A stretch of DNA of 64,000 nt from a virus: IMG/VR virus record IMGVR_UViG_3300025030_000090, positions 4,754 through 68,753 of that record; one strand, given 5' to 3'. Shown here piece by piece: positions 22,277 to 46,584 of this stretch (the stretch's first letter is position 1; each line of letters begins with the position of its first letter). A model generated the notes under the pieces. The model was not told the DNA's origin and made no database searches. It was given only the letters and a program-made list of their open reading frames with translations. The position numbers and the translations under genes were made by a program.

Positions 22277-22539
22277 TTATCTTCCTCATACTTTTCGGCA
22301 AACTCTGAAGAGTTTAGTATTTCATATCCTTCTCTAAACTTTACAACCCAATTTCCTGGGCAAACAATATGTCCACCTTCTAGTGTTATTATCCAACCAT
22401 GTTTGCACATTGACTTATAGCAATGCTGACAGGGTACTGTGTTTTCACCATATGGGTCATAGTCATGAACTTGTGGGTGGTCACCTGTCCTAAACCATTG
22501 AGATGCTTCTATGACTACTGGTTTTTTGACGAATTTCAT
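22270..22539 (-). CDS. conserved phage protein (KKPVVIEA type)
   Basis: KKPVVIEASQW...I.TLEG.H.V.PGNWV. Confidence 0.72.
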   Translation of the reverse strand: MKFVKKPVVIEASQWFRTGDHPQVHDYDPYGENTVPCQHCYKSMCKHGWIITLEGGHIVCPGNWVVKFREGYEILNSSEFAEKYEEDKC

Positions 22540-27119: not shown

Positions 27120-27120
27120 C

Positions 27121-27243: not shown

Positions 27244-27249
27244 TTTTTA

Positions 27250-27648: not shown

Positions 27649-27650
27649 TC

Positions 27651-31394: not shown

Positions 31395-31631
31395 CTAATT
31401 TTTCTGTTTTTTTTCTGCAAGTTTTTTATGCTCTTTTTCAGCTTCTGCTAGAACTTTGTCTTGCTTTTTGTTGTATTCTCCCCAATCAATATCACCGAAT
31501 CTTTTAGGCAAATCTTTGCCTTCAGAAAAGTATTTTTGGTGATTTTTTACAGCTACTGGGTGCTCTGAAAAACCATCATGAAAATGAAATCCTACTTTCA
31601 TTTTTTCTAGAAAATCTTTTATGCAATTCAT
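31395..31631 (-). CDS. small protein consisting mostly of the His-rich tag B
   Basis: IKDFLEKMKVGFHFHDGFSEHPVAVKNHQKYF. Confidence 0.7.
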   Translation of the reverse strand: MNCIKDFLEKMKVGFHFHDGFSEHPVAVKNHQKYFSEGKDLPKRFGDIDWGEYNKKQDKVLAEAEKEHKKLAEKKQKN

Positions 31632-31634
31632 ATT

Positions 31635-33872
31635 TTACACATTTAATGCATCATCAAATTCTGGCATAGATTTTATTGGTGGCTTGTTTTCCTTATCAAA
31701 TTCTTGTGCAAGTCGTAAGATTTCGTCTTTAGAAATGTCTCCAAGTTCTCCAGCATCTCTATCAGCCCTATTGTTTACTATTATATATTCTCTAAACTCG
31801 TTAGAATCATATTTAGGGTTTTGGCGAATGAATTTGTGGTAGAATCCATTGCTGAAGCCTGTGTGTTTTTCATGCAGCGATTTTTGAAACAATTCCAAAG
31901 CGCTTTTCTCTTCATTTTCTTCGGAATCATCTTCTTCTATTTCTTCCCAATCTTCTGGTTCTTCATCATATTGAATAGAATCAAGCCATTGGTTAAATGG
32001 AGTGTTGGATTTTACTAAAGAAGCAAACTGCGGAAACTTTGATGTGAAGATTTCTGGAGAGATATAGCTTGAAAGTGCGACAGAACGAGTGTTACCTAGC
32101 TCTTTTGAAACAATGTCCCCTATTTGGAATCTGAATTTTTTGAATTCTTTCTCGTTTGTAGGGGGTGGTAATTGTTGGATCACCTCATGGGCAATTCTCG
32201 TGCCTAGATGTGTGCGAAAATCTTTAGGAGAAAATTTGTGTCCTGAAATTCCACCCAGGTACTTTCTTACTTCATAGTCATTCACTTTGAACAATGGTTT
32301 TTCTTCATTTTTCTTTTTACGTGCAAGCAAAGCAGCTATTTTTGGGTCTTTGATTTGTTTCTGTATATGAACACCCTTTTTGCCGATGAAATCAAATGAA
32401 ATACTATCACCATTTATTTGAACATGTTTTCCTAATAAAGTAGAAACTCCATACGCTTTTACTTTGGCTAGGGTTTCATCATTGCTACCTATTCTAAACC
32501 CTGTTTTTGAGATAATATACAACACTAGCGCTTCTTCTGATTTTGATACATCTTTGGAAATTCTCTGTTCAATACGAGGAAGAACTTGGGCAAAGGCTTT
32601 CACCCTTTTGAATTTTGCGGCTGTATGCTTCTTAGAATGTTCAGCAGAATACAGATATTGCAATCTTCCTTTTGAGTCTTGTCCAATTGCTTGCAATGGG
32701 GAATTTTTGCTTTTTGCTACAAGAACATTCTGCCAGTTTGGGGGAATTCTAGAACCAGAAGGAGAAATATTTTCACCTCTCTTCTTTTGTCGCATTTCGG
32801 GATAACGATCTTGATACGGATTCACATACACAGTTCTTGTTCTTGGGAAGGTTTTTCCTTCTCTATGGACAGTTTCTTGTATTTGTTTGGGAACTAGGTT
32901 TGTATTATTTGCTTTTTTAATTTCACTAGTTTTTACTTCAATGTTTTCTATCCAGTTAGGGGGGACTCTTCTTGTCATGGCTACGTATGTCCCAAGTAAG
33001 TTATTGGTTGGATGTTTAAGCAAAATGATTTGTTCAACACTTAACTTATCGGACCAACCATATGTCATAGAATCAGGCACAAGTTGATTGATATATTGTT
33101 TAGGAACTCTGAATTTAACGATAGTTTTTATCTTAGTATTTACAAAATTGCTTGGTTCTCCTATTGAGGCAAAATTACTTTCTTCAATAAGTCCTCTAGT
33201 TTGTACTGATTCTTTTACATTTCCAGGAGATTCGTGATATAATATTATCCCATTATTAACTTCTGATATACGCCTTAATCGCCCCAAAAATGTTTTTTCA
33301 GCTGCTTCCGGTGTTCTAATATTTTCTGGAAGGCTGTTTATGAAGTTCTGGTCTATTTCATCATCAAATTCTGGTATTTTATAGGTTGTTTTTGAAGGGT
33401 CTTGATTTTTAGATCCCAAAGGTTGTCGGATATTATGTGTAGTAAAATATTTTTGGTGATCTATTACTCGTACTGGGTGTTCTGGAAAGTTATCATGTTT
33501 GTGTTTCCAGGATTCTTTTTTAATTTCTTCATTATTGCGTTGTTGTAAACTTCCAGAGTCTTTCTCCCCGCTATTTTCATCCTCAGCTTTTTCTTCTTCT
33601 CCCTTTTCTCCCATTTTGAATTCTGGTAGTAGTTCTCTGTATCTATCTGTTCCTTCATCATCTTGATCCCATAGTCCTTCTACTCGTATTTGTTGGATAT
33701 TGTCTTCGATAACCTTTTTTGCATCATTGAGTTGCATTTCTTCAGAGACAGAAATTTCGGGTGAAGAAAGTTTCTCATTTATCTCATCATCCATTGCAAT
33801 AAGCTCTTTCAGATATCGTTTTATTGCAATATCAATAGAATGGTAGTTGGCATCAATTTCGGATATAGACAT
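31635..33872 (-). CDS. polyprotein: tag B + putative ART/KptA-like domain + tag A + DNA topoisomerase IB
   Basis: TopIB catalytic set TGFRIG, FIGKKG, KDFRT, LGNT..V...SYI; upstream LYHES..GL..VPPNWI domain. Confidence 0.85.
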   Translation of the reverse strand: MSISEIDANYHSIDIAIKRYLKELIAMDDEINEKLSSPEISVSEEMQLNDAKKVIEDNIQQIRVEGLWDQDDEGTDRYRELLPEFKMGEKGEEEKAEDENSGEKDSGSLQQRNNEEIKKESWKHKHDNFPEHPVRVIDHQKYFTTHNIRQPLGSKNQDPSKTTYKIPEFDDEIDQNFINSLPENIRTPEAAEKTFLGRLRRISEVNNGIILYHESPGNVKESVQTRGLIEESNFASIGEPSNFVNTKIKTIVKFRVPKQYINQLVPDSMTYGWSDKLSVEQIILLKHPTNNLLGTYVAMTRRVPPNWIENIEVKTSEIKKANNTNLVPKQIQETVHREGKTFPRTRTVYVNPYQDRYPEMRQKKRGENISPSGSRIPPNWQNVLVAKSKNSPLQAIGQDSKGRLQYLYSAEHSKKHTAAKFKRVKAFAQVLPRIEQRISKDVSKSEEALVLYIISKTGFRIGSNDETLAKVKAYGVSTLLGKHVQINGDSISFDFIGKKGVHIQKQIKDPKIAALLARKKKNEEKPLFKVNDYEVRKYLGGISGHKFSPKDFRTHLGTRIAHEVIQQLPPPTNEKEFKKFRFQIGDIVSKELGNTRSVALSSYISPEIFTSKFPQFASLVKSNTPFNQWLDSIQYDEEPEDWEEIEEDDSEENEEKSALELFQKSLHEKHTGFSNGFYHKFIRQNPKYDSNEFREYIIVNNRADRDAGELGDISKDEILRLAQEFDKENKPPIKSMPEFDDALNV

Positions 33873-36800
33873 TATTTCTCACCCACAAATAACCCAGGAC
33901 TGCTTGCTCGCAACATTTTCATTTGTGCCATAATATCAAGAAATTTTGCTTGTTCTGTAGGGTTGTCTTCGTACATATATGTATTTACAGTCACATCACC
34001 AGTTCTTGGGGAGCGAGCAATTCTTCCTTGGGCCTGGAGAAGGACACTCGCATCTTGAGGGTTTCCTAAAATATGCAAATGGTCTCCTGTTTGCAAATTG
34101 TAGCCGCTACTAGATTTATTATCTATAAAGATAACCCTCACATCTTTGTTTCTTCTGAATTCTTCTGCTCTTGCAGCCATTTCTTCCCCAGTCATGCTGG
34201 TAGTAGAAGCGGCAAGATTTTTTACTTGACTTTGTTTCAGGCCAAGCTCTTTGATGATGTCATTCACAGAATTTCTTTGAGTCCGACTATCTATAAAAAC
34301 CACATGTTTTTTGTTTGAATCTCTTTGCAAAGCAGTTTTTAGGGCTGTAAGTTTCGAATTGGTAGCGATTGGTCCATCATCAAGATTTTCAGTATGCTCT
34401 TGTTCTATTTCTGTTCTCGCAACTTTAGTAGCATTTTGTCCTAGATTTCTTTCCCAATTTTCAGAACGATGTAGCGGGTGATTAGGATTGCTTCTTACTT
34501 CATTTATGATTTCTTGTCTTCTGGTGGCGATTTTCTCAGCACTTTCTAATTCAATTTCTTTCTGATTTTGGACCTGATAATCTGTTTTTCTAACATTAAC
34601 ATTGTTATGGTTTACTTTCCAAGGAGGGGTAGAAAGTTTATCACCACTAATAAAAGGCCTGATGGTATGAAAGAACATGGAGCTCAATCCCGTGTCTTGC
34701 GCATTTGTCCCGCTGCCAAATCCTGAGTATACTCTTTGGAATGATGCTTTGCTACCAAGAGATTTTGTTTGAGTTGCCCATTTTATCAAATCATGCGCTT
34801 CAAGGGGGATTCTTCTCGCAGGAGTGGCTGTAAGCCCGATTCTATGGTTCACAGGAAGTCGCATTATTCTTTTGCCGTATTCTCCGATGTTTCCTGATTG
34901 TCCTCTTGCTTGAAGCTCTTGTGGCTCATCAACTACAAACCCATGAAATTTTTTGTTCCCCAATTGTTCATTTGTCTGCATCTGGGTGAGCATTTCAGAA
35001 GAACGTGCAGCTTCTCTGTGGGCAATTACATATACAGTTCCTGGTTTGCTATCAAGAAGAATATCATCTACTTTGTCTCTTGCAGTCCCATCTGGGATGT
35101 ATTCTATTTTCAAATTTGTGAACTTTTCTGCCTCTGATTTCCATTGCTCTCCTCTGCCTTTAGGAACAACCACAAGCCCTTTGTAATTAGGATCATCATT
35201 CATTTTATGAGCAAAAAACCCCAAAGCAGTGTTTGTCTTTCCAGCACCCGTGACTCTGGTAATCAACCCACCTCCATTTCCTAGAGGATTTTCTGTTGAA
35301 GGTTTTGTAGTTTCCAGAAGCCAATTTATATCATTTCTTTGTTCAAGACGCCATTTGTATGGTTGAGTTACTCCTGATTCGTCAGTAAATTCTTTCTTCC
35401 ACAAAGGAACGTCAAAATTTGATACAACAAGATTTCCCTTATCATCATATTCTGAACCAGAGGTATCAGTCTTTAGTTTTTCATATTTGTCAGAGATTTC
35501 TTTGTCTTGTTGAGTTTCAGTAATTAATTTTCTAAGAGAATCAAGTCCTACTTTCACAGAAATATTATCTGGGTCAGAGTTGTCTATGGTGTGATGTTTA
35601 TCTGAAAGTTTTAATCTTTCAGCAATTGCTTCTGCATCTTTTTGGTTATTTCCGGCATAAATGTGTATTATGTCATTCTTTGCCGTTTTTAGTTTTTCCA
35701 TTTGGTCGTAAAGTGTAGCAGATGCTTGTAAAGAGCCAATTGCAGCACCTATGTTTCTTTTTTGTTCCAAGAGATTTTTCATTTCCAATGAAGAAATTTT
35801 TATCTTGTCTAGAAGTTCGCCACTTCCTTTTTGTTTTTGGATTTCATTCCATTGATCTTTGAGCATTTTGTGTCTATCAAGGGCTTTTTTTTCAGTTGAT
35901 TGCTGATTTGTAGCATTGAAGTCCCTTAATTGTTCTACTGCTCTGGCATATCCTTCAGTAGATTTTGAATTTTCATGTATTTCATAGGCAACCATAGCCG
36001 TAGCAACTTCAATATTGGAAGCATCAATAAGTCTTTTGACATCTACTGTTTTCCCTAAAAATTGCTGTGCAAGAGAGGCAAGAGCAATAGAAGCTCCGGC
36101 ATTCAAATGGAATTTTAGAGTAGTATCTATTTTCTTGTCATCTCCTATGGCATCCATCAGGCTCTTTTTGTTGTTCCAGTGTTCCGCAGCAACCTCATAA
36201 AGAGCTATAGCAGTATTGTTTCTCAACCACTGGTCATAAGATTGCGTAGTTTTTTCTTCTAATTCCTCTATAGACATATCAGATTCTATAGATACCAGGT
36301 CTTGTCTCAATTGGGCAATAGTAGAAGGGGCAGCATCTACCATAGGAACTTTCTTAATAGCTCCTTTCTTTAATTCTGCTTCTTTTCTTTTGTCCCAATA
36401 TGATTTGACAGAATTGATAGCCTTCTTCAAATCTTCTTCGGATTTCAATTCAAGTTTTTCTATAGGAGCGATTTTTATCTCTGGAGCTTTTTCATCAGGA
36501 TTAGTTGGATTTTCGCCATCTTCAAGGATATTGTCTATTTGTCTGTCCATGTGATTGGCGACAGCACTATCCAATTGATTTTGATTCAAGTCTTTCAGTT
36601 CTTCAATATTCGGCATGGAAAGTTGAACGTCGCCAATTTCTTGAAGATCTTTTGATTCTTCTTGAATTATTTGCTCTGTATTTGCTTCGGAGCCAAGTTG
36701 TGAAAGCCGCTTGCCGATTTTTGCTACTACAAGTTGTCTTTCTCTTTGGACTTTTTCGCCAACTTTTCTATTGGCTGCTACAATTTGTCTTGTGATGGTA

Positions 36801-37351
36801 TCGGTAATTCTTTTTGCTTGCTCTTTGTCTTCTACAATCTTTTCTACGTAGTTCTGAATATCATCTTTTTGTTCTAGAAGCTGCTTTTTATCTACTTTTT
36901 TGATTCCAAGTGCTTCTTTCATTTCTTCTGCAGCTTTTCTGACTTCTACTCTGGACTCTTCTTCTAGTTCTTTTTTGGCTACAATGATAGGTTCATTATA
37001 TTTTTCAGCTTCTTTTGCTGTTTCTTCTAGTTCTACATCTCGCTCTGTTTTCTTTGGAGCACCGCCAAGAACTTGATGCCGACGAGCTTCAACCTCGGGA
37101 TCGAAATGTTGCCCGCCCCCAACTATAGCTAGGAGGTTGTCAGGCCTCTTTTGAATTAAAAGTTTTCTGTGGTGGAGCGGCGACTCAGGATCAGATACTG
37201 TAATCCAAGCTGAATCACCGACAGCAAGCGATTCGGCGTCAAACTTCCCGTCCTTCATAGGTGTGGGAACTGTAGCCTTGTTAAAAGATACAAATTCTTT
37301 AGAATGCTTTTTGCTGCCTAACATTTTCAATAGTTCTAAAAGCTTACTCAT
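33872..37351 (-). CDS. large coiled-coil protein with SF2 (SNF2-like) helicase/ATPase
   Basis: VTGAGKT, VVDEPQE, LTATP, SSGYNLQ, QAQGRIAR. Confidence 0.8.
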   Translation of the reverse strand: MSKLLELLKMLGSKKHSKEFVSFNKATVPTPMKDGKFDAESLAVGDSAWITVSDPESPLHHRKLLIQKRPDNLLAIVGGGQHFDPEVEARRHQVLGGAPKKTERDVELEETAKEAEKYNEPIIVAKKELEEESRVEVRKAAEEMKEALGIKKVDKKQLLEQKDDIQNYVEKIVEDKEQAKRITDTITRQIVAANRKVGEKVQRERQLVVAKIGKRLSQLGSEANTEQIIQEESKDLQEIGDVQLSMPNIEELKDLNQNQLDSAVANHMDRQIDNILEDGENPTNPDEKAPEIKIAPIEKLELKSEEDLKKAINSVKSYWDKRKEAELKKGAIKKVPMVDAAPSTIAQLRQDLVSIESDMSIEELEEKTTQSYDQWLRNNTAIALYEVAAEHWNNKKSLMDAIGDDKKIDTTLKFHLNAGASIALASLAQQFLGKTVDVKRLIDASNIEVATAMVAYEIHENSKSTEGYARAVEQLRDFNATNQQSTEKKALDRHKMLKDQWNEIQKQKGSGELLDKIKISSLEMKNLLEQKRNIGAAIGSLQASATLYDQMEKLKTAKNDIIHIYAGNNQKDAEAIAERLKLSDKHHTIDNSDPDNISVKVGLDSLRKLITETQQDKEISDKYEKLKTDTSGSEYDDKGNLVVSNFDVPLWKKEFTDESGVTQPYKWRLEQRNDINWLLETTKPSTENPLGNGGGLITRVTGAGKTNTALGFFAHKMNDDPNYKGLVVVPKGRGEQWKSEAEKFTNLKIEYIPDGTARDKVDDILLDSKPGTVYVIAHREAARSSEMLTQMQTNEQLGNKKFHGFVVDEPQELQARGQSGNIGEYGKRIMRLPVNHRIGLTATPARRIPLEAHDLIKWATQTKSLGSKASFQRVYSGFGSGTNAQDTGLSSMFFHTIRPFISGDKLSTPPWKVNHNNVNVRKTDYQVQNQKEIELESAEKIATRRQEIINEVRSNPNHPLHRSENWERNLGQNATKVARTEIEQEHTENLDDGPIATNSKLTALKTALQRDSNKKHVVFIDSRTQRNSVNDIIKELGLKQSQVKNLAASTTSMTGEEMAARAEEFRRNKDVRVIFIDNKSSSGYNLQTGDHLHILGNPQDASVLLQAQGRIARSPRTGDVTVNTYMYEDNPTEQAKFLDIMAQMKMLRASSPGLFVGEK

Positions 37352-37818
37352 TAGCGAAATCCGATATCATTTTTCGTATTAGCTCTTCGTTTTTCAAATC
37401 ATGTTCCCAAATAATCAGAGTCCCATATCCACTTTGTTTGAATAAAGAAATTCTTTCCAGGTCTTGATTGATTTCGTCTGCTGATTTCGGAAAACAAGTT
37501 TTGCAATTGTGGAAGTAACAACCATTGAATTCAATTAGTTTCTTCTCACTTTCATTCAAAAAGTCAGGATTCTTTCTATGAATCCAAAACGATCCATCAC
37601 CTACATATTTCCATCCCGAAGTAGAATTCTTAATGATTTCTAACAACTTAATTTCTGCGGAATTTGGATGTATAGAAGCGTTTTTGAGAGCTTTCTCGCA
37701 GCGTATATTTCTTTCTGAATCGCTCAATCTATCCCAACTCTTTTATTTTTCGTTTAGATCTTGGAAATATCGTTTCTCCACACCCACAAGCACAATATTT
37801 TATTTCCATGTTACTCAT
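37344..37818 (-). pseudogene. degenerate Vsr/DUF559-type homing endonuclease
   Basis: PDF..IEFNGCYFH..C..C, LIIWEHDL at 37344-37727; N-terminal CACGCG part (ATG 37818) is out of frame. Confidence 0.65.
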
Positions 37819-37885
37819 ATTCAAATCCTAGGAACCCAATTGTCTGGTTCGGGAAGTTTTGGGTCTTGAAAAAAATTCTTTTAGT

Positions 37886-38185
37886 TTATTCATCCTCTAT
37901 TTTCTCTGGATAATCTGCTTTTACATAAGTTCCATAAAGACAAAAATGAAGATTTTCTACAAGTTCTCTTCCGTCTTTCAAGGAAAGTCTCTTTCCTCTA
38001 GATCCATCTTTTTCTATTTTTACCAGCCCACGTTTTAGCATTTCTTCCAACGTTTCTGTGTATTCACCAACAATAGATATCTTATCTGTTTTGCTATCCC
38101 ACTCTACATTAGCGATTTCGCTATCATGGACATTGTATACTTTGGAAATGATTTTCATTGTTGTACCCTGTATCCTATATTCCAA
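37886..38185 (-). CDS. hypothetical protein overlapping the kinase 3' end (possible inhibitor)
   Basis: likely start MKIISKV overlaps the kinase stop. Confidence 0.55.
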   Translation of the reverse strand: MEYRIQGTTMKIISKVYNVHDSEIANVEWDSKTDKISIVGEYTETLEEMLKRGLVKIEKDGSRGKRLSLKDGRELVENLHFCLYGTYVKADYPEKIEDE

Positions 38186-39426
38186 TTAGGCTGTTGTTGG
38201 AGGAGGATGTCTGCCCGATACCGCATAGCTTCTGCTTGCATGCTGGAGATATAATTTCCTAATTTTTTTGCCATCACATCATCACTAATGTTAGAAATAT
38301 CTGACAATTTCTTTCTCCATTTATCTGGTATGCGTAATTTTCTTGCTCTCGCCTTATCATGTATAATTTGATATGAGGCAGTTACATATGGATATTTTGA
38401 GAAACTTCCCCCATTGTCTATTGCTATTATTCTGCCATTTTTTCCTAACAACCAATTTCCATCATGGCGATCGGGATTGTCTATAAGATAATCAAAAAGG
38501 ATAGTATCTATAAGATCTTCATCAGATAATTTGTTTGCTTTTGATGAACTGCCAATATCAGCATCTACAAATTGTTGTATGCTCCCATGTTTTTCGCCTA
38601 TGCTTCGCATAGATGTTGTAGGAACTATATCTAAATTAAGCATCTCTGACAAAAGAAAAGCAGACACTTCATACTTTGGTTCTCCATAAGCTGATTTGTA
38701 TTTGAAAACAGCTTTTCCATCATCTTCCAATTCAACAATTTCTGGGTTGTTAACACCCTTGCCAATTTTTTGTGATTTGGTTACGTTTCTTAAAAGAATC
38801 TCAACTGGGACATAATGTGTTTTTGGAGATTCTTTTGGTTTTTCTTTTTGGGGTTCTGAAGATGATTGCTGAACTGCATGTGTAGCAAAATATTTTATAT
38901 GGTCTATAACTCTAACTGGATGTTTTGGAAAATTATCATGTTTATGTTTCCAGTTCCCTTTTTCTATCAGAGGATTTTCCCCCACAAGTTCAGAAAGAAC
39001 ATCTCCTTCCAGGAGCATCTCTTCTTCTTCGCTTTTTATCATTCTAGAAAGTTCCCAAAAAGTGGAAATTTTCGCAGGAGTAGAAAAAAGGACTTCTGGT
39101 TTTATTAACCAAATGCTATTTCCATCTGTAATTGCTTTTTTGACTTCTATTCTAATTGTATCACCAGCTTCTGCTTTTATATCTGTAGGAGCAGTATACC
39201 CAGCATTCAAAACATGATGCCCATGAATTGCTCCTGATTGCTGCTTTTGAGAAACAATAGAAGTTTTTCCATCACCTAGTTTTTTAGGTCTTGAAGAAGT
39301 TACCCCAGCTTGTTGTCGAACCATTTCTTTTCTATAAAAGGGTCGTCCCATTTTAGGATGAACTAAAACAAGTTTTTGTGTCAAATTAGGATTAGCTTTT
39401 TTCAGGAATTCTTGAAGTTTGCTCAC
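38155..39426 (-). CDS. tag A + tag B + PI3/PI4-kinase-like (HipA/CtkA superfamily) kinase
   Basis: AVFK, EVSAFLLS..L.L..VP.T, GSIQQFV, FDYLIDNPDRHDGNWL, IAIDNG. Confidence 0.85.
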   Translation of the reverse strand: MSKLQEFLKKANPNLTQKLVLVHPKMGRPFYRKEMVRQQAGVTSSRPKKLGDGKTSIVSQKQQSGAIHGHHVLNAGYTAPTDIKAEAGDTIRIEVKKAITDGNSIWLIKPEVLFSTPAKISTFWELSRMIKSEEEEMLLEGDVLSELVGENPLIEKGNWKHKHDNFPKHPVRVIDHIKYFATHAVQQSSSEPQKEKPKESPKTHYVPVEILLRNVTKSQKIGKGVNNPEIVELEDDGKAVFKYKSAYGEPKYEVSAFLLSEMLNLDIVPTTSMRSIGEKHGSIQQFVDADIGSSSKANKLSDEDLIDTILFDYLIDNPDRHDGNWLLGKNGRIIAIDNGGSFSKYPYVTASYQIIHDKARARKLRIPDKWRKKLSDISNISDDVMAKKLGNYISSMQAEAMRYRADILLQQQPNWNIGYRVQQ

Positions 39427-39686
39427 TATCGCTTCAACCCGATTTTATACACGAATTGCCCATCTGGGAGTTCTTTCTTTTCTAGAATCTGAACATTGAT
39501 TCTTTCATCAATATTGACAGTTCTCCAATTTGAATCTTCTTTAGGGGCTTCTTTTTCGAGATTTTCTGGCTGTGAAATATCTTCCATACTTCTATTGTAA
39601 ACCTTTTCTATAGGGGTGCTATCATTTTTGTTTTCTTTTTGCTCCCATTGTATATCTGTTTCTTCCCAAACGAATCTATTTTTCAT
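39426..39686 (-). CDS. small acidic protein after ART (NxFxWExxDI N-terminus)
   Basis: overlaps the ART stop. Confidence 0.6.
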   Translation of the reverse strand: MKNRFVWEETDIQWEQKENKNDSTPIEKVYNRSMEDISQPENLEKEAPKEDSNWRTVNIDERINVQILEKKELPDGQFVYKIGLKR

Positions 39687-40398
39687 TTATCAAAAGCTCC
39701 AATACTATTTGGTCATTTTCTTTAGATACTTTGAATCTACTATTGCGAGGAAGGAGTATTTCTTCTTCTTTCTGTGAAGATGTTCCAGCTGCAAAATCTA
39801 AAGGAATTACTTTTGTTCCTTTTGGTATTTTTATTAATATCAGTTTTCCAAATTTTTGGGCAATATTTGCATTTGATGTGGTTGATAAAAACCCATTATC
39901 CGTAAAAATCCGTCCTATGTTAGCATCAAGATGTTCATATATTTTTGTGTCACTTCTTATCCCTCTGAACAAAAACATATTTTCTGAAGTTAGAGGGACT
40001 TTTTGGAATGCTTTGTCCATTGTTAAGATTTGTTGTTTTAATTCTTCTTCACTTGTAGGACTTCCAGAGATCAGAATACCATTTCTAAGTAGCAAATTGA
40101 TTGGTCTGCTGCCAAATTCTTTATAATTTTGTAGTACTTGTTTTTCATTTGGGCTCAGTAGTTTTTCTATGTCCTCAAAACCTTTTCTTGGCCGAACCCA
40201 TCTAATAGACCAATATGGCTTTTTCTCCCAAGTGCTGGGAATGATTTGTACTTTTTTGGGTACTAATCCTTCTCTTGCTTTTTCTAGAAAATCTTCAAGT
40301 TTTGAAGAGGGGGTAGTTATATACCTCTTTTGTTCCAAACCCCTCTGTTTTGAAGAAAAAGTGATTTTTTCAGATAGGGATTTTTTGATTTTTAGCAA
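39676..40398 (-). CDS. tag A + VIP2/C3-like (R-S-E) ADP-ribosyltransferase
   Basis: IN.LLR, LFRG, FLSTT, KEEEILLPRNSRF. Confidence 0.88.
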   Translation of the reverse strand: MLKIKKSLSEKITFSSKQRGLEQKRYITTPSSKLEDFLEKAREGLVPKKVQIIPSTWEKKPYWSIRWVRPRKGFEDIEKLLSPNEKQVLQNYKEFGSRPINLLLRNGILISGSPTSEEELKQQILTMDKAFQKVPLTSENMFLFRGIRSDTKIYEHLDANIGRIFTDNGFLSTTSNANIAQKFGKLILIKIPKGTKVIPLDFAAGTSSQKEEEILLPRNSRFKVSKENDQIVLELLINEK

Positions 40399-40423
40399 AG
40401 TATCCGTCCTCTAAAACTTTGAA

Positions 40424-43400
40424 TCAATCGTCCATTTGTACCCATTTTGCAGGCTTTGATTCTTTTGCCATAACAAGAAATTCTCTTTCATTTTCGTTAT
40501 ATGAATGTGCGTAATAGAAAGACCAAATATCTTCCCTTTTTGTTTTTATTTGCAACGTTATATTCCCAAAATTTTTTGCCTTATAATAAGAATGAGACCA
40601 GGAAGATAAAGCATCTTGATTTAGAAGCACTGGGACATAAGAGTGAGTTCCGCTGTACCCAACAAGCTTCGGTTTTCTCTTTACTTCATTAAGACTTGTT
40701 CCTCTATATAAAGTGATGAATTCGTCTTCTTCATTCTTTTTCGGAAATGCTTCTGCCAGAATTCTTTGCGTTAAATCATAATGAATTCTAACATATTCAT
40801 CTATCTCTTTTCCGCCTAGTCTGAATCGCATTTCTTTTACTTGTCCTTCCATCTTATCTGTGAATCTTGGATGGGCATATGTTTGTTTTTGAATTATTCT
40901 AGAAACTGCTTCTTTTATAGTATACGCATCCATAGAAGTAGAAGATACTGCCCAACCCTCTTTCAACGTTTCATGTATGAATTCATATGGCGTCCCTTTA
41001 TAGAGTTCATCTACAATTTGCACCATCGTTTGCGAAGGACCTTTATTAGAAGTTAGTTGTCCGATGTATTCTTTGAATTTGTCAGATAGTTTTTCAGGCA
41101 ATTTCCAGGTTCTATGGAATTCATCTATGAATTTTTCCCCAAGAATATTATCTCTGATTAGGCTTCTAATTTCTATTTTTCCTCGTTCACCTGTGCTCCA
41201 ATTTGAAATATTGTGGTTTTTCATGTGTTTCCCAATAAGTTTTCTGACAAACAAATATTGAGCATCTTCATCGCTTGAATGTTTCTCATAAAATTCTTGA
41301 AAAACATTTCCATTACTTCTTGATACAGAATCAAGAAAAGTTTTAGGAGATACTTCTTTTATGTTTTCTAGTATCTCAAGAGTTATCTCTTTGTTTGGTA
41401 TTCTTTTTGAAACTGTTTCTTTTACGAATATATCTCTATCTTTTGTTAATTTTTTCAGGATTCGTATATTTCTTATTTTACCAGCTACAAGTTCTCTGAT
41501 TCTCGCAGAGCTATCATCTGCTAACATTTCCAGAATAGGTTGTAAATCTCTTTCATAAGCCGCCGAAGCTGCCAAAAAACGTTCTGTTTCATTTGGCGAT
41601 TCTACCCATTTGATAAATGTGTCTATAGCTTTGTGTTCTTCTGGGTTAACATATATAGTTCTAGTTCTTCTGAATGGTGGGCCGTCTTTGGGGTGAACTA
41701 TCTCATGTATCTGTTTAGGAATTTTTCCTCTGGTTTCTCTTTTTTCCAGTTCATTGTCAAAGAACTTTCTAATAACTTCCTCAAAATCACCTAAAAACAA
41801 ATCATCAAGTTCTTCTTCTGAAACCCATTTGTAGCTAGAATGCTCCTTGTTTAACTTGATCTCTCCAGAAATTTCCACTTTGTAGAAAAGAACTGGATGT
41901 TCGTCCTTTCCTATCTCTGTTTCCCCAGAAATGTCAAATTCTTCTATGTCTTCTACTTTGCAGTTTATCTCTTCCTGAAGTTCTCTTCGCAGCGCTTCCT
42001 TTGCGTCCTCTTTTTGGTCGATGTGGCCTCCTGGGAGGTCGTATGGAAATTTAGAATTGGTAGGATTATGAAGTAAAAGCAATCTTCCTTCTTCATCCAG
42101 TATCAATGCTTTTGCAGAAATAGGAAGGTTTGCTTTTTCTATTTTGTCCTTTGTTTCTATCTTTCTTGTTTCGGGATTAAAAGTTGCAGCAGAATCCAGT
42201 TGCCAACCTCCGGAACCATCTGGAACTATAAGATTCTTTGGAATTCTGAAAGAATAAACTTGGCTATCTTCTGGGTAATCTACATCCCTGCCTTGAGCAT
42301 AACTTCTATCAGTAGCAAAGAATTTTCCTTTAGGAATTTCTTCTCCAGAAACCCATTTTTCATATTCTTTAGCACTCATGTCTCTATAAACACGAATAAG
42401 TTTTGGTTCTTTTCCTTGGTGTAGAGAAATAAAACTAGGAAAATATCCCACATTGGATTTCCATTTCGAATAATCTGGTTTCCCATAAAGCATTTCATAT
42501 ATTGTTTTGACTTGTCCAAACATGCTTTCTTGAATGTCTTTTCCATTTTCTTCAGCTTCTTCGAATGAGGACAGGTCATCTCCATCCCAAAAATCTACTT
42601 CCCCGTCATCACCTATAGAAATTTGGGCCGAAGAAGTATATTTGGAATTTGGCATCTTTTGATGAATAACCATTCTGATGTCAAAATTATCTTCCATTTT
42701 ATCATAGTCAGGAAAGTCAGAATACATAGGCGGAAGAAGTTCAATCTTCGTCATCAAAAAATCTTCCATTCTGTGAATGTGGGCTTTTAGTTTTTCGAAT
42801 GTTTCTTTTCCGAATTGGTGAAAAAGAACATAATCAATAGCATTTTGTCTGTCTTCTTTTTCCCAAAACTCCCCTATGTCTTTGTTCTTTCTATAGCTGG
42901 CCCAGTCGTTGGTATCATGTCTTTCCATCCCTAGAGAGAACCAGACTTGTCCAGGGGAATAATTTGTAATTGGCTTTCCAAAAATTAGAGTTTCTTCCCA
43001 TTCTGGTTTGTTTTCTATATGGGATTCTTCCGCTTCTTCTTTTGCTTCTTCAGGAGAAACCCATCGAATACCCCAAAATGTTTTTCCTTGCTGATGGATC
43101 TGCACCTTTTTAGGAATAAGGTTTGGATTTGAATCAGATTTTTGAATTTCTTCTTTCTCTTGTATTGCTTTTTCGGGGTGGAAAACTACAAATTCAGCAC
43201 CTCTTTGTATTCCGAATTGTGTTTTTCTGGGTTCATTTGTTAGAATAATTCCATCATATCCTTGATTCTCTAGCTTCTGTCTTATAAGCTTGCTTTTTTG
43301 CTCTAATTTTTCGGTCAAAGAACCTTTGAAATTCGCCAAATCTTTGGAAACTAGCTCATCTATATCTCCAGGAGTTCTTGGGACATAGGGTTTTTGCAGA

Positions 43401-45505
43401 TGCAAATGATGCTGTTGGACATCACCATATCCTTCAGCAATTTGCTTATGGGAAGAAAAATAAGTTCCTTTTCCCCACATTCCTTCATCTACAGGTGTAT
43501 GTTTTCCAGTTCCTCTCCATACAATGCCTTGAAATGGTTTTCCATGTTCGATTCCCTTTGCTTCATGAACATCTACATTATAGGGATTGTCTTGCTTCGG
43601 GAGATTGGAAAAATATTCTTGATGGTGTTCTACGGCAACAGGGTGTTCTTGCCAGCCATCATGCTGATGATATGCAACCCTAGCCTTCTCAAAATCATCC
43701 CCGAAGTATTCTTCTGCTTCTTTCTTTGTAGGTGGCCCTTCAGACCATTTTTTAGAAGCAAGGCCATACTTTAGTTCTCTTTCGGAAACAATGTCATCAT
43801 CAGCTTCTTTTTCTTTTCTAAAGGCATTTCCGTGGGGAGTACAAAAATGGGCTGTGGCCATCGCTTCGGCCCAAAGAAATTCTACTGTGGGTGACATGCT
43901 GCATTTCATGCATTTGCTTCTGCTGTAGGCTTTTGTTAAATCTGACTTTGAAAGATACTCAGAATAGTTATCTTTTACATATTGCAATGCTTGGTCTGGA
44001 GTAGAAAATTCTCCTTCCTCTTGCTTTTCTCTAATCTCTTTTATGACTTTGCCCATCATTTTGCTCGGAGGAAGTCCTATAGAAATAAGATCGTCACCTG
44101 TAACAAGCGGAGGAATTTTGCCTTCAGAAGTCATTACTCCAATCTTGCCTTTAACTTCTTGAAGCTTATCTCTAAACCATGAGCTTTCATTTCTTGAAGC
44201 AGGTTCTGGCTCCCCATCTTCTTTTCGATGTAATCTTCCAGTAGTATCTGCTTCAGAAAAGTCAGCAAGAAGGTTGAGTTTGTCTATTCCATGTTTGTTG
44301 ATTAGTCTTTTGAAGGCAGATTCTGGAACTTTTTGTCTCCAAAAGGCAGTCGGAATGCCATGATTTGCTACTAGGAAAAGAACCCTTTCAACTATTTCTT
44401 CATTATTTGTAAGTCTTGATAGGAATTTTTTAGTTGGATCTATTCCTAATTCTTCATGACCATGTTGAGTGATTTTTCCATCTTCTTCTTTTGTAGCATC
44501 AGGTTTTCCGAAATCGTGTGCAATAGAAGCAAGCATTAAAGCAAGCTTGTCTTTCTCATTATCATATTTTTTGATGATTTCAGCAGACTTGTCCATAACC
44601 ATACGAATATGGTTGTATACAGAACCTTCAAAATGAAAGTCTCCCCGTTGTTTTGTAGTTTTCAGCACGAAAATTTCTGGCCAATATCTCTTCAGCACAT
44701 CCATATCATCAAGAGCTTCTAATCCAATAGACGGCTTTTTTGAACGAAGAAGAAGCTTTTTGAATTCCTCAAAGATTCTTTCAGACGGAAGATGTGACAA
44801 ATCTATTGTAGAAGCTAAATCTACTGTTTCTGGAGCAATAGAAAAACCAAAGCGGGCAGCAAATTGTGCTGCACAATACACCCTCAGTGAATCTTCCTGA
44901 AATGTTTTATCATTTACGTGACGAATAACACCATTTTTTAGATCTTTTATCCCGCCAAAATGATCCAGGATCTTCTTTTTTTCTAGATCGTAATAAATTG
45001 AGTTTATGGAAAAATCACGTCTTTTTGCAGCCGTTTCTGTGTCCAAATAAGGATCTGACTCTACTTCGAAATCGGTGTGTTTCTCCCCTATCTTCTTTTC
45101 TTTTCGAGGCAAGGAAATATCAAAATCGGTTCCTATTTTGAATACACCAAATTGCTTTCCTACTTGTTCACTTTTTCCACCCAGTTCTTCTACTATTTCT
45201 CCAAGTCTTTCTTTTGGAATATCATAAACTTCGATATCAAAATCTTTTACTGCTTTTCCTAGAAGAGCATCCCGCACACTACCACCGACAAGATATGGTG
45301 TTCCATATTTTGTAAGTGTGGATGTTATTCTTTCAAAATCTGGATGTTGAAAAAATAAGGGAGAGGTTTCTTCTTCTGAAGAGACCATGATAACACGATC
45401 TCTCTCAAAAGTAGTTCCTCCTCTGTGAACTACCTCATGTATTTTCTTGGGAACTAAATTGGGGTTAGTCATCTTCTTGTGAAAAATTTCCCTTGTATAA
45501 GACAA
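40424..45505 (-). CDS. polyprotein: CCA-adding/HD tRNA nucleotidyltransferase, two ART-like domains, NUDIX hydrolase and C-terminal R-S-E ART, separated by tags
   Basis: LVGGSVRD/DFDIE/RRDFSIN/EDSLR, IAHDFGK; VWRGTG..GTYFS..YDGI; GGHIDQKEDAKEALRRELQEE; LYRG/LSSWS/NEREFLV; true start likely ATG 45472. Confidence 0.88.
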   Translation of the reverse strand: MSYTREIFHKKMTNPNLVPKKIHEVVHRGGTTFERDRVIMVSSEEETSPLFFQHPDFERITSTLTKYGTPYLVGGSVRDALLGKAVKDFDIEVYDIPKERLGEIVEELGGKSEQVGKQFGVFKIGTDFDISLPRKEKKIGEKHTDFEVESDPYLDTETAAKRRDFSINSIYYDLEKKKILDHFGGIKDLKNGVIRHVNDKTFQEDSLRVYCAAQFAARFGFSIAPETVDLASTIDLSHLPSERIFEEFKKLLLRSKKPSIGLEALDDMDVLKRYWPEIFVLKTTKQRGDFHFEGSVYNHIRMVMDKSAEIIKKYDNEKDKLALMLASIAHDFGKPDATKEEDGKITQHGHEELGIDPTKKFLSRLTNNEEIVERVLFLVANHGIPTAFWRQKVPESAFKRLINKHGIDKLNLLADFSEADTTGRLHRKEDGEPEPASRNESSWFRDKLQEVKGKIGVMTSEGKIPPLVTGDDLISIGLPPSKMMGKVIKEIREKQEEGEFSTPDQALQYVKDNYSEYLSKSDLTKAYSRSKCMKCSMSPTVEFLWAEAMATAHFCTPHGNAFRKEKEADDDIVSERELKYGLASKKWSEGPPTKKEAEEYFGDDFEKARVAYHQHDGWQEHPVAVEHHQEYFSNLPKQDNPYNVDVHEAKGIEHGKPFQGIVWRGTGKHTPVDEGMWGKGTYFSSHKQIAEGYGDVQQHHLHLQKPYVPRTPGDIDELVSKDLANFKGSLTEKLEQKSKLIRQKLENQGYDGIILTNEPRKTQFGIQRGAEFVVFHPEKAIQEKEEIQKSDSNPNLIPKKVQIHQQGKTFWGIRWVSPEEAKEEAEESHIENKPEWEETLIFGKPITNYSPGQVWFSLGMERHDTNDWASYRKNKDIGEFWEKEDRQNAIDYVLFHQFGKETFEKLKAHIHRMEDFLMTKIELLPPMYSDFPDYDKMEDNFDIRMVIHQKMPNSKYTSSAQISIGDDGEVDFWDGDDLSSFEEAEENGKDIQESMFGQVKTIYEMLYGKPDYSKWKSNVGYFPSFISLHQGKEPKLIRVYRDMSAKEYEKWVSGEEIPKGKFFATDRSYAQGRDVDYPEDSQVYSFRIPKNLIVPDGSGGWQLDSAATFNPETRKIETKDKIEKANLPISAKALILDEEGRLLLLHNPTNSKFPYDLPGGHIDQKEDAKEALRRELQEEINCKVEDIEEFDISGETEIGKDEHPVLFYKVEISGEIKLNKEHSSYKWVSEEELDDLFLGDFEEVIRKFFDNELEKRETRGKIPKQIHEIVHPKDGPPFRRTRTIYVNPEEHKAIDTFIKWVESPNETERFLAASAAYERDLQPILEMLADDSSARIRELVAGKIRNIRILKKLTKDRDIFVKETVSKRIPNKEITLEILENIKEVSPKTFLDSVSRSNGNVFQEFYEKHSSDEDAQYLFVRKLIGKHMKNHNISNWSTGERGKIEIRSLIRDNILGEKFIDEFHRTWKLPEKLSDKFKEYIGQLTSNKGPSQTMVQIVDELYKGTPYEFIHETLKEGWAVSSTSMDAYTIKEAVSRIIQKQTYAHPRFTDKMEGQVKEMRFRLGGKEIDEYVRIHYDLTQRILAEAFPKKNEEDEFITLYRGTSLNEVKRKPKLVGYSGTHSYVPVLLNQDALSSWSHSYYKAKNFGNITLQIKTKREDIWSFYYAHSYNENEREFLVMAKESKPAKWVQMDD

Positions 45506-45884
45506 TCATATCATTATCAGGAAACTTCTCACAAACAAAATCAGGATAACTTTTTTTTATATCTTCTATTGTTTGGTTTTCTTTCAATGGGAAAATATGG
45601 GCAACAAATTGTTTTGCTATTCTACAACTATCTCTGATGATTTTCTCTTGGTTGTCCATATTTCGAAGAACATTGTACGAAAACACAGAATCAAATTCAT
45701 CATCCTCATACGGAAGCTTGTTTCCTAATTCTATATCACAAATAGAAGAAGTAGATTTTTGAAGCACTTCCAATGAGTCTGATTGTTTTATTTCTAAAAT
45801 AGAGCTTCCTGGAATAGAAAGAAGAAATTTTTCTAATCCGCCTAAAAAATAAATATCCTCTTTCTCCCAAGCAAATTTATTCAT
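45465..45884 (-). CDS. NxFxWExxDI peptide fused to a degenerate class I SAM methyltransferase fold
   Basis: SILEI (no GxG), LPYEDDEFDSVFS..VL. Confidence 0.6.
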   Translation of the reverse strand: MNKFAWEKEDIYFLGGLEKFLLSIPGSSILEIKQSDSLEVLQKSTSSICDIELGNKLPYEDDEFDSVFSYNVLRNMDNQEKIIRDSCRIAKQFVAHIFPLKENQTIEDIKKSYPDFVCEKFPDNDMIVLYKGNFSQEDD

Positions 45885-46584
45885 TCATTATCCCTGTCCA
45901 CTGATATACAGGCACCCCATTTTGATCTGCTACCCACTTAAAAATCGAATTTCTTGGTATGATCACCTCTTCTTCGTCTGATTCGGTTACAGTATCAGGT
46001 ACATGAAGTGCTGAGGCTCCTTTTGGTATTTTTATTGCAATAGTTTTATAATCGTCAAATTCCAATTCCTGTATCCGACTATTTAGGGATGTAGAAACAA
46101 ATCCTCTGTCTACAAAAGTTCCTTTTGGAAAGCTAACATTTATAGCTCTAAAGCATGTGATACTGAATGGTAGAATACTTTTTGAAATTGCTTTGTCCAT
46201 CACATCAATTTTGTACGCCAATGATCCTATTGTATATGGTGCGGCAGTTAATTTTATATTTTTGTTTCTCAAAGATCTATTTATTTCTTTATACCCGTTT
46301 ATCTGATAGTCATTAATAACAACCTTTTCTTTTTCAAGCAAAGCATTATATGCAATTATCAATTCTTTTTCAATTTGCTTTCTTGTAGATCTTGAATATG
46401 GTAAGGAAAATTTTTCTTTTTCTTCTGGGTTCACCATCACAGTTCTTTCACGAGGAAATACTTTTCCTCCACGATGTACTTCTTCGTGAATCTTTTTGGG
46501 AATGAGATTAGATTTGTTTAATTCCAGAAATTCTTGTAATTTTCCCAATTGGAAATTATCCCCAAATTGTTTTTTGCCAGTCAC
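45877..46584 (-). CDS. tag A + VIP2-like (R-S-E) ADP-ribosyltransferase
   Basis: Y..IN.SLR, CFRA, FVSTS, DEEEVIIPRNS. Confidence 0.86.
   Translation of the reverse strand: MTGKKQFGDNFQLGKLQEFLELNKSNLIPKKIHEEVHRGGKVFPRERTVMVNPEEKEKFSLPYSRSTRKQIEKELIIAYNALLEKEKVVINDYQINGYKEINRSLRNKNIKLTAAPYTIGSLAYKIDVMDKAISKSILPFSITCFRAINVSFPKGTFVDRGFVSTSLNSRIQELEFDDYKTIAIKIPKGASALHVPDTVTESDEEEVIIPRNSIFKWVADQNGVPVYQWTGIMNE

Follow-up and report, generated by a model that had tools for sequence, protein, structure and literature searches.

The 64,000-nt stretch of viral DNA analysed here (the window) corresponds to bases 4754-68753 of the 68,753-nt IMG/VR record IMGVR_UViG_3300025030_000090, whose completeness is estimated at 78% by CheckV. 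All long open reading frames (ORFs) of the window lie on the minus strand. A stretch of ~15 kb, running from 46584 down to 31395 between the portal/MuF genes and the gene of an S78 head protease, encodes unrelated enzymes that are accompanied by a recurring short leader and by two small conserved segments, here called Tag A and Tag B. A first-pass annotation of the same DNA had described these proteins as cassettes of leader, junction, tag and effector, and sequence comparison bears this out: the cassettes are real, portable and tied to head genes. Judged from the same comparison, leader and tags recur in unrelated enzymes of many uncultured phages and most likely mark these enzymes for capsid loading. 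The genes of the cargo stretch are as follows (a slash within a motif marks the junction):

45877..46584, minus strand: ADP-ribosyltransferase (ART) of the ADPrib_exo_Tox family, with the leader ..KLQEFLELNK/S followed by Tag A (Pfam, BLAST and hidden Markov model, HMM).
45465..45884, minus strand: 139-aa ORF overlapping the end of the ART gene, with a weak Methyltransf_11 match (Pfam E 3e-5).
40424..45505, minus strand: 1693-aa polyvalent protein (Pfam, HMM).
39676..40398, minus strand: second ART (ADPrib_exo_Tox), with the leader SKLEDFLEK/A and copy 5 of Tag A at 40147..40317.
39426..39686, minus strand: 86-aa ORF following the second ART, with no Pfam match.
38155..39426, minus strand: kinase-like protein of 423 aa (PI3_PI4_kinase-like, Pfam E 2e-6).
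37344..38185, minus strand: two small ORFs (37886..38185 and 37344..37727) without significant family match.
33872..37351, minus strand: 1159-aa SF2 helicase, with ResIII/Helicase_C at aa 666-1113 (Pfam).
31635..33872, minus strand: 745-aa protein with a type IB topoisomerase domain (TopIB; Topoisom_I, Pfam 2e-22).
31395..31631, minus strand: 78-aa protein made up of leader, Tag B and a charged helix (low-confidence AlphaFold model).

The catalytic domains seen by the first-pass annotation between portal/MuF and protease (CCA/HD, NUDIX, kinase, TopIB, SF2 helicase) are indeed unrelated, and Pfam agrees with their assignment. Two of the polypeptides hold several effectors, namely the 1693-aa protein (CCA/HD, ART-PolyVal, NUDIX and two weak ART-like regions) and the 745-aa protein (ART-like, TopIB). 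The former opens with Tag A, CCA/HD, a linker, a leader with Tag B and ART-PolyVal, and continues with IQK/S and a further Tag A, an unknown/TreTu_C-like region, NUDIX, another Tag A and a DRAT-like C-terminus; Pfam detects PolyA_pol/CCA and HD at E 1e-23, NUDIX at 2e-17 and ART-PolyVal at 31.2 bits, exactly at the cut-off of that family. The 745-aa protein consists of Tag B, an ART-like region, IKK/A with Tag A, TopIB and an acidic tail. In the kinase-like protein, the leader MSKLQEFLKK/A with Tag A is followed by IEK/G with Tag B and by the PI3/PI4-kinase-like domain, which is homologous to Tag A-headed proteins adjoining the portal in the related loci L004 and L007. The 660 N-terminal residues of the helicase are unannotated and begin with MSKLLELLKML...FNK/A; no Tag A is found there at the HMM level, and a degenerate copy is visible by eye only.

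With regard to the ARTs, of which up to six had been proposed, three are solid and the other three tentative. The latter comprise the DRAT-like C-terminus of the 1693-aa protein (E 2e-4, below cut-off), its TreTu_C-like region (E 0.09) and aa 124-385 of the 745-aa protein, which resemble the ART-PolyVal region at E 3e-5 in a BLAST within the locus. Each of the two small ART genes, whose products have ~240 aa, is trailed by an overlapping small ORF (45465..45884 and 39426..39686), and the two ORFs are alike at their start (NxFxWExxDI), a weak likeness that extends over 10 residues (E 0.23). The first of them is possibly an ART partner, and both could be partners or inhibitors of the ARTs.

Segments shared among the proteins of the locus were detected by all-against-all BLAST and then searched with HMMs. 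Tag A (consensus NLVPKKIxExVHRxGKxFxRxRTVxVxPEE) occurs seven times in the window and Tag B (HxHDxFxEHPVxVxxHxKYF) four times, in all cases within cargo genes. The HMM of Tag A was built from six copies, the seventh (aa 785-826, independent E-value, i-E, 7e-9) being recovered by search, and the tag HMMs yielded no additional match at E<0.05 among the six-frame ORFs of the window. The copies are:

46399..46554, minus strand: Tag A copy 1, in the ART 45877..46584 (HMM i-E 6e-26; alignment A1).
45350..45502, minus strand: Tag A copy 2, N-terminus of the 1693-aa protein (HMM i-E 2e-22).
43016..43183, minus strand: Tag A copy 3, aa 775-830 of the 1693-aa protein, after IQK/S (HMM i-E 7e-9).
41618..41788, minus strand: Tag A copy 4, aa 1240-1296 of the 1693-aa protein, after ELEK/R (HMM i-E 1e-25).
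40147..40317, minus strand: Tag A copy 5, in the ART 39676..40398.
39274..39423, minus strand: Tag A copy 6, in the kinase-like protein.
32787..32960, minus strand: Tag A copy 7, in the 745-aa protein.
43556..43723, minus strand: Tag B, aa 595-650 of the 1693-aa protein, after DFEK/A (HMM i-E 6e-24; alignment A6).
38812..38994, minus strand: Tag B, in the kinase-like protein.
33378..33560, minus strand: Tag B, in the 745-aa protein.
31395..31631, minus strand: Tag B, in the 78-aa protein and there nearly stand-alone.

Tag A is thus located at the N-terminus of both small ARTs and of the kinase-like and 1693-aa proteins, twice more inside the 1693-aa protein, and once directly before TopIB. An AlphaFold model of residues 1-80 of the ART 45877..46584, based on a 42-row alignment, shows a helix at positions 10-24 that ends at K24 (predicted local distance difference test score, pLDDT, ~66-74), a three-residue loop and a two-stranded beta-hairpin at 28-51 (pLDDT ~93), so that K24/S25 marks the helix end ahead of a confident hairpin. 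On this model, Tag A is predicted to be a basic beta-hairpin of ~25 residues with the pattern LVPKKVxVHRxGKTFxRTxWVxPEE, and the leader a short amphipathic helix ending in hydrophobic-x-K. A Foldseek search of the Tag A model against the PDB returned no match at E<=0.001, and for Tag B the AlphaFold model is too uncertain to be interpreted (pLDDT ~52-55 within the tag). We also considered Tag A as a part of the ART fold; this was ruled out, as the tag likewise heads CCA, TopIB, kinase, peptidase and ligase-type domains.

All of the 12 cargo junction strings and the four portal and protease strings listed by the first-pass annotation are present in the sequence. Hydrophobic-x-K precedes seven of seven Tag A copies, four of four Tag B copies and the start of the MuF-like protein, and the residue after the lysine is A, S or G at eight of these 12 sites; since the tag copies of the window are paralogous, they count as one conserved feature and not as twelve independent events. 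As a loose motif, [ILFV]xK[ASG] is found 34 times in the 5,024 residues of the cargo region, compared with 21.8±4.6 after shuffling (a 1.6-fold excess), while the other 13,762 residues of the window show no enrichment (53 vs 52.0±6.7). The K[AS] dipeptide is not enriched in the cargo region (58 vs 62.2 in shuffles). Most of the regional excess stems from the fixed position of the motif ahead of the shared modules, and five of the 12 strings (LTKA, IEKA, FNKA, LVKS and FQKS) are followed by no recognisable tag and are indistinguishable from chance. The K-[AS] junction is weak as a loose motif and strong as a positioned element. The earlier observation is real at its core and over-stated in its loose form: leader, tags and positioned hydrophobic-x-K do form a shared grammar, but the loose K-[AS] motif, with its 1.6-fold excess and the boundary test discussed below, does not.

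Outside the window, the Tag A profile was searched against 1.84 billion representatives clustered at 50% identity and retrieved 73 proteins at E<=1e-3 (seven at <=1e-10), four of which are the window's own or near-identical. Their lengths span 89-2,249 residues, and a single protein can hold as many as six matched stretches. In the 70 proteins covered by a Pfam scan, the commonest families were PolyA_pol (6), ADPrib_exo_Tox (4), Topoisom_I (3) and ATLF (3), besides Peptidase_M90, HD and Phage_Mu_F (3 each) and single cases of InPase, Zeta_toxin, Helicase_C_4 (a Strawberry-notch-type helicase C-terminal domain), NUDIX, RadC, DNA ligase, 2H, LPD1, ART-PolyVal and PI3_PI4_kinase. No Pfam family is common to all 70, and Tag A itself is therefore not a Pfam family at E<=1e-3. 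TopIB follows Tag A also in the proteins P0015 and P0019 and in a protein of locus L012. In P0011 and P0014 the segment upstream of Tag A resembles, by eye, the C-terminal OB part of ATP-dependent DNA ligases; DNA_ligase_A_M was found by Pfam in one of the 70 proteins.

The junction could be followed in 85 of the 89 Tag A copies outside the window, which were anchored on the LVPKK core. Hydrophobic-x-K lies within 12 residues upstream of the core in 64 of these 85, with a spacing from lysine to core of 4-5 residues in 48 of the 64, and the residue after the lysine is Q in 26, A in 23, S in 6, G in 2 and another in 7. The core itself falls within the first 40 residues of the protein in 34 of the 85 copies. 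Hydrophobic-x-K-[AQS] occurs in the 12 residues upstream of the core in 55 of 82 copies, compared with 4/53 and 1/41 in upstream control windows (25-36 and 49-60 residues) and 4/82 and 6/78 in downstream ones (45-56 and 80-91 residues). Of the K-[AS] junction as originally described, the conserved lysine and the hydrophobic residue at -2 hold, but the lysine is followed by Q no less often than by A. These alignments indicate that the junction is a real conserved element.

A profile search with Tag B gave seven matches, two of them the window's own, and in the five further proteins the same leader (..DFLEKQ, ..WLEKA, ..DLEKS) stands ahead of six of eight Tag B copies. Similarly, in P0194 (CCA plus MuF) and P0196 (TopIB, an ATLF-type peptidase and a C-terminal MuF), ..LQK[SA] directly precedes the MuF module. 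As it heads Tag A, Tag B and MuF alike, and as the point of gene fission or fusion coincides with it, the leader is not a mere cap for one fold; the possibility that it only caps the Tag A hairpin was ruled out on the same grounds. A tblastn search of 50,697 deposited phage records with P0012, a Tag A protein, as the single query found no match, which is weak evidence that cultured phages lack the tag, and text searches of the literature returned no description of such a tag, a weak result as well since a word search cannot find sequence motifs.

The tagged genes are embedded among the head genes of the window, of which the following bear directly on the cargo:

50737..53184, minus strand: portal, 815 aa, with an intein-like insert from ~aa 303 (phrog_18178, E 8e-34).
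49205..50095, minus strand: stand-alone MuF-like head morphogenesis protein, 296 aa (BLASTP to MuF modules).
46556..47179, minus strand: ClpP-like serine protease, 207 aa (Pfam CLP_protease, E 8e-39).
27651..29354, minus strand: HK97-family (S78) prohead protease, 567 aa (phrog_23555, E 1e-14).

The portal is ~38% identical to the portals of 11 related loci, with 56% over a shorter stretch in one of them, and carries a leader-like site, YLSK/A, at aa 29-33, followed by a Gly/Ser-rich stretch. The first-pass annotation had stated that portal (LSKA) and protease (LEKA, ITKA, IIKS) bear the same junction as the cargo. The strings are there, and for the portal the comparison is consistent throughout: in the window and seven relatives, hydrophobic-x-K-[AS] falls within two alignment columns at ~residue 30 in eight of eight N-termini (YLSKA, LSKA, LMKS three times, LMKA, FVKS and FIKS), each time ahead of a Gly/Ser-rich stretch. 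The portal of the window has 815 aa, those of its relatives 553-584 aa, and its residues 303-456 match families containing inteins.

The MuF-like gene is situated two small ORFs downstream of the portal. Residues 2-291 of its product align to the MuF modules of P0196 (E 2e-45) and P0194 (E 2e-34), the PF04233 assignment of the latter being precomputed, so that both features of the MuF/SPP1 gp7 family, PF04233-domain homology and a near-portal position, are found here. The protein has no direct Pfam match and a weak match to phrog_2468 ('head morphogenesis'). It starts with FYDAIDSSIQKS at the very point where the alignment to the fused forms begins (leader, FYDAIDSSIQK/S).

A scan of IMG/VR with the narrow Tag A alignment A4 revealed 12 related loci, which represent about five distinct lineages and include several near-duplicates; the portals of two were confirmed as phrog_18178. 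The Tag A gene starts at the portal stop or a few bases from it in 10 of the 12, while in L003 it lies 3.2 kb downstream of the portal, and L011, whose contig begins 269 nt upstream, is uninformative. The co-occurrence of the tag with head loci that the first-pass annotation would lead one to expect is thus observed. L008-L014 encode Tag A-CCA/HD-TopIB fusions and L004, L005 and L007 Tag A-kinase-like proteins, all homologous to cargo of the window, and L006 is cut within the CCA/HD part. In the 49-kb sequence G001, the order is terminase, ribonucleotide reductase, portal, Tag A cargo and exonuclease, with a scaffold-like gene ~18 kb later. Next comes the gene of a major head protein (phrog_24667, 3e-19; PF17236 SU10_MCP), and a protease of 462 aa is encoded two genes further. 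The capsid protein of G001 has YLQK/Q at residues 26-30, which matches the leader consensus of the cargo, and YL[QM]KQ is found at ~residue 25-30 in this protein and its 119 listed relatives. The Pfam family Phage_capsid (PF05065) was detected in none of five related records. The major head protein of G001 (L015:1239-2606) belongs to an SU10-type family that is highly abundant in metagenomes, with 1,373 matches at E<=1e-5 among 8,000 candidates scored.

The S78 protease 27651..29354 consists of an N-terminal extension, IISK/M and ITK/A, the catalytic domain, an invariant IIK/S and a divergent C-terminal part. Its own match to Pfam S78_2 is below cut-off (20.8 vs 24 bits), while PF04586 is present in 16 of 22 database homologues, one of which is named 'HK97 family phage prohead protease' in its source. 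Across an alignment of 20 homologues, which share 28-46% identity with the window protein, the invariant columns include H228, S286 and K332; profile match and conserved His and Ser are thus as in HK97-family prohead proteases, and H228 and S286 presumably form the catalytic pair. K332, within [IL][IL]K, is the last conserved residue (20/20), after which the sequences cannot be aligned. Within 75 residues N-terminal of the catalytic domain, 18 of the 20 homologues carry [ILVMF][ILVMF]xK at the boundary between the conserved core and an N-terminal extension that varies or is lacking. The prevailing forms are FLEK[QA], LLEKQ and IIEKQ, the leader consensus of the cargo; the other two homologues have LLKA and IVKS. 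A motif that flanks the catalytic domain of the protease and recurs in portal and cargo is the pattern expected if this S78 branch cuts there, although domain edges can also be conserved on structural grounds. The 462-aa protease of G001 is an orthologue (44% identity over 243 residues, E 2e-54) and lies two genes past the major head protein, whereas the contig of the window has no recognised capsid gene; close relatives of 27651..29354 were not found in IMG/VR. The head protease of T4 follows the site rule L/I-x-E, and that of SPN3US the motif A-x-E. Neither homology to T4 gp21 nor a Glu-specific site was found for the window protease, which belongs to HK97/S78 and has Lys as the conserved residue. 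The capsid protein of Listeria phage A511 is said to be matured at a K/S bond, and a K/S site is likewise reported for the HK97 capsid.

The ClpP-like protein 46556..47179, overlooked by the first-pass annotation, matches phrog_94 ('head maturation protease') at E 1.5e-30, with Ser and His motifs visible, and its gene overlaps the first ART gene by 29 nt, i.e. the two are translationally coupled. It is a second candidate for a head or cargo protease, and no counterpart was seen in the related loci. Two head-protease-like genes in one phage are unusual. L007:14381-15226 and its equivalent in L004 encode a trypsin-like peptidase (Trypsin_2, E 9e-15) within the same head gene array, possibly another processing enzyme.

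The remaining genes of the array and its surroundings complete the picture of the locus:

59730..62696, minus strand: ribonucleotide reductase with an HNH/intein-like insert.
54041..55699, minus strand: large terminase (phrog_2, E 2e-41).
48006..49196, minus strand: Metallophos exonuclease, between the MuF-like and the ClpP-like gene.

Along the minus strand, the order is ribonucleotide reductase, terminase, portal, two small ORFs, the 296-aa MuF-like protein, the Metallophos exonuclease, two further small ORFs, the ClpP-like protease, the 15-kb cargo stretch, four small ORFs and the 567-aa protease. From the terminase through 31395, neighbouring genes overlap or are separated by gaps of 0-163 nt, and cargo, portal, MuF and head-protease genes form one tightly packed co-directional array. 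Crude scans for promoters and terminators in the window gave counts equal to those of shuffled sequences, and no tRNA genes were found in it.

Several further observations concern the phage as a whole. The GC content of the window is ~36%, and positions 14001-16000, which include an ORF with a DnaJ-type CXXCXGXG zinc finger (14988..15503), stand out with a local value of 0.51 vs ~0.36-0.40 around. Directly downstream of the protease gene, 530 nt (27120-27650) are devoid of any ORF of at least 100 aa in any frame. A few kb downstream of the cargo locus, which is rich in ART and NUDIX domains, the minus strand encodes a nicotinamide phosphoribosyltransferase-family protein (22536..23996; NAPRTase/NAMPT_N) and a ribose-phosphate pyrophosphokinase-like protein (21503..22276), which may constitute a module of NAD salvage or reconstitution near the NAD-consuming ARTs and NUDIX. 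The ribonucleotide reductase, with HNH-type matches, has 988 aa vs 640-672 aa in relatives, and the terminase of one relative (L007:4817-7468) also holds an HNH/intein-like insert; in this phage group, inteins seem to invade genes of the head and of nucleotide metabolism readily. For the cluster of the kinase-like protein 38155..39426 (P0006), the longest contig on record has 141,984 nt, about twice the present record. That contig may be a concatemer, or else the phage may be much larger than CheckV suggests.

The best explanation for these observations, and one towards which we lean slightly, is that the locus encodes head-associated cargo enzymes of the 'polyvalent protein' kind, which are addressed by leader and tags, loaded and processed. 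Its parts differ in strength. That the cargo enzymes are packaged in the head and addressed by their tags we regard as probable, whereas cutting by the S78 head protease after the junction lysine is a tentative proposal that falls a little short of an even chance. In this model, a cargo unit would consist of a leader helix ending in hydrophobic-x-K, of Tag A, Tag B or MuF, and of an enzyme. The proteins would be made late, together with the head genes, and would be recruited into the prohead via leader and/or tags, as for MuF and for T4 proteins with a capsid-targeting sequence (CTS). There the S78 prohead protease would cut after lysine, removing N-terminal leaders, splitting the 1693-aa and 745-aa polyproteins into units, and likewise processing itself and the portal. 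The freed enzymes, still bearing Tag A, would exit with the DNA and, once injected, act on host defences linked to nucleic acids or NAD (tRNA 3'-end repair, ADP-ribosylation, decapping, topology). More tentative still is the generalisation that [WFY][LI][EQ]K followed by Q, A or S is a portable 'address-and-cut' signal, which a lysine-specific branch of HK97-family prohead proteases might read. With it, uncultured phages could load nearly any enzyme into the capsid, split polyproteins into units and trim portal, MuF and the protease, while Tag A, retained on the product, would hold the enzymes to the DNA for ejection.

The underlying idea has been put forward before, for polyvalent proteins (PMC5512222) and for the T4 CTS with gp21 (PMC9958956). 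Polyvalent proteins are multi-enzyme proteins from portal/terminase/MuF neighbourhoods, with two to fifteen unrelated effector domains per polypeptide; the prediction is that they enter the virion, are freed by peptidases and are injected against host defence, some of them with assemblin-like peptidases at their C-termini (Iyer et al. 2017; PMC5512222). The locus resembles them in its large multi-enzyme proteins and solo versions encoded with portal, terminase and MuF genes, and has helicase, NTase-type and NUDIX-type enzymes in common with them, along with the ART-PolyVal domain that scores exactly at cut-off. It differs in that their hub domain, a zincin metallopeptidase, was not found in the window, in that its units are headed by a recurring leader and Tag A or Tag B, which were not found in Pfam, and in that processing is here ascribed to the head protease and not to an embedded peptidase. 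The cargo here includes a CCA-adding enzyme and a topoisomerase, whereas in the text of PMC5512222 the former does not appear and the word 'topoisomerase' occurs once.

In T4, a capsid-targeting sequence of ~10 residues loads the internal proteins, and gp21, self-activated through removal of its first nine residues, trims IPI-III and Alt (PMC9958956). As predicted here from the genes, a short N-terminal peptide would likewise direct non-essential proteins, ARTs included, to the prohead core, and a head protease would remove it and process its own N-terminus before the proteins are injected. Unlike in T4, the protease is of the HK97/S78 type, the proposed site follows Lys and not Glu, the signal also stands between the domains of polyproteins, and an additional conserved tag stays on the product. 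By analogy, the system may work like that of T4 without being a member of it. In SPN3US, gp245 cuts portal, itself and ejection proteins at one motif, and the propeptides are mostly N-terminal (PMC10052503). A single head protease acting on portal, itself and internal or ejected proteins at one short motif, as in SPN3US and phiKZ, is what we envisage here; there, the motif ends in Glu and was proven by mass spectrometry, whereas here the proposed motif ends in Lys, and the 240-kb genome of SPN3US has cargo that does not consist of modular enzymes with a shared tag. As in the effector fusions of MuF proteins (SPP1 gp7/Mu gp30; PMC5512222), MuF is encoded near the portal and effectors are fused to it in P0005, P0194 and P0196. 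The MuF of the window, by contrast, is a separate gene of 296 aa, most of the cargo carries Tag A or Tag B, and in related phages a Tag A-headed protein, not MuF, directly follows the portal. The Dar system of P1, compared by description alone, similarly has several large anti-defence head proteins, of which DdrB is processed before packaging (PMC5512222), with a different set of enzymes. For SU10, five ejection proteins are described, and the stem 'cleav' does not occur in the text (PMC9509320). Distinctive features here are a lysine-ending leader that is also internal, the two tags, a cargo set with CCA, TopIB and kinase, and a cargo leader that matches the pro-regions of the protease.

A number of findings weigh against this interpretation of loaded and processed cargo. 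The phage is uncultured, and packaging and cutting are predicted from its genes. Neither the window nor the other 4.7 kb of the 68.7-kb contig yielded a recognisable capsid, scaffold or tail gene. Pfam found no zincin MPTase, the hub domain of polyvalent proteins, and no LPD families among the window proteins. The enrichment at domain boundaries over interiors anticipated by the first-pass annotation was not seen in the simplest form of the test: the motif occurs 10 times in the 1841 residues of catalytic-domain envelopes, defined by Pfam or homology, and 20 times in the 2654 residues outside (Fisher p=0.46), a blunt test because the residues counted as 'outside' take in long unannotated stretches, which probably are domains too. 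A position-specific scoring matrix (PSSM) of the leader, trained solely on non-window proteins and used at a threshold of 8, ranks the ART 39676..40398 top of the window (18.1) and separates weakly, with seven matches in the head locus vs 3.7±1.8 after shuffling (~2 standard deviations) and five vs 3.4±1.7 in the rest of the window. In G001, a six-residue PSSM gave seven matches vs 2.7±1.6, some of which fall in replication-type proteins and in a motif conserved in the interior of the protease. The residue following the junction lysine varies in the window (A, S, G, K, R, M, E), hydrophobic-x-K is missing in 21 of the 85 external Tag A copies, the tag itself forms the very start of some proteins (MPRSHAGLVPKR...), and conservation at a helix end can be structural. 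The relatives of the G001 capsid are at least 77% identical to one another and therefore amount to a single observation from one lineage. Finally, with the ClpP-like protein in the window and the trypsin-like peptidase in L004 and L007, there are several candidate cutters beside the S78 protease.

Some of these points fit another explanation, which we regard as unlikely: that the cargo is packaged but leader and tags only dock it (to portal, MuF, scaffold or DNA) or have a structural role, the polyproteins staying whole or being cut elsewhere or by another enzyme, and the lysine acting as a contact or helix cap. N4 vRNAP, ArdC and TraC1 provide precedents, being packaged or transferred unprocessed (PMC5512222). 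The variable residue after the lysine, the Tag A copies without the motif, the weak proteome-wide motif tests and the fact that the Tag A hairpin is the best-conserved and confidently folded part would all be natural if docking were the sole task. Less easily accommodated is that one leader heads three unrelated modules (Tag A, Tag B and MuF) and so is no mere fold cap, that the motif borders the catalytic domain of the protease, as sites of autoprocessing would be expected to do, and that it occurs ~30 residues into the portal, ahead of a flexible stretch.

Clearly improbable in our view is that the enzymes are cytoplasmic, unpackaged and located in the head array by chance, with tags that bind nucleic acid, metal or a target such as tRNA, RNA polymerase or phage DNA. 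All of the enzymes act on nucleic acids or NAD, Tag A is a predicted basic hairpin and Tag B is rich in histidine, the array contains other non-structural genes such as the exonuclease, and the window protease is trailed by metabolic genes and not by a capsid gene, as such an arrangement would have it. However, the Tag A gene directly follows the portal, the classical MuF position, in 10 of the 12 loci, some polypeptides combine Tag A or Tag B with MuF (three of the 70 Tag A proteins, and P0194 and P0196), and the leader is common to portal, MuF and protease. A chance pattern in a lysine-rich proteome, over-read as a grammar, is very improbable: although shuffles alone give 21.8 matches in the region, neither the K[AS] dipeptide nor the boundary comparison is significant and five of the 12 strings lack a tag context, the position before the tags is conserved in 55 of 82 copies vs 1-8% in control windows, in proteins clustered at 50% identity and from many sources, and the motif is not enriched outside the locus (53 vs 52.0), so that this reading is largely refuted for tag-linked sites and stands for LTKA, IEKA, FNKA, LVKS and FQKS.

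The interpretation as packaged and processed cargo has implications beyond this phage. Outside T4, P1, N4 and giant phages, the proteins that are carried in the capsid and act before phage gene expression are mostly unknown. If the proposed system is real, leader and tags would provide a sequence-level predictor of injected effectors that can be applied to metagenomes, and would point to a counter-defence of the first minute that involves tRNA CCA repair, ADP-ribosylation, NUDIX, TopIB and a kinase. They would also offer a means of directing foreign proteins into phage heads. On the side of the proteases, they suggest that the HK97 family of head proteases has a lysine-specific branch, with the site of the cargo present in the pro-regions of the enzymes themselves.

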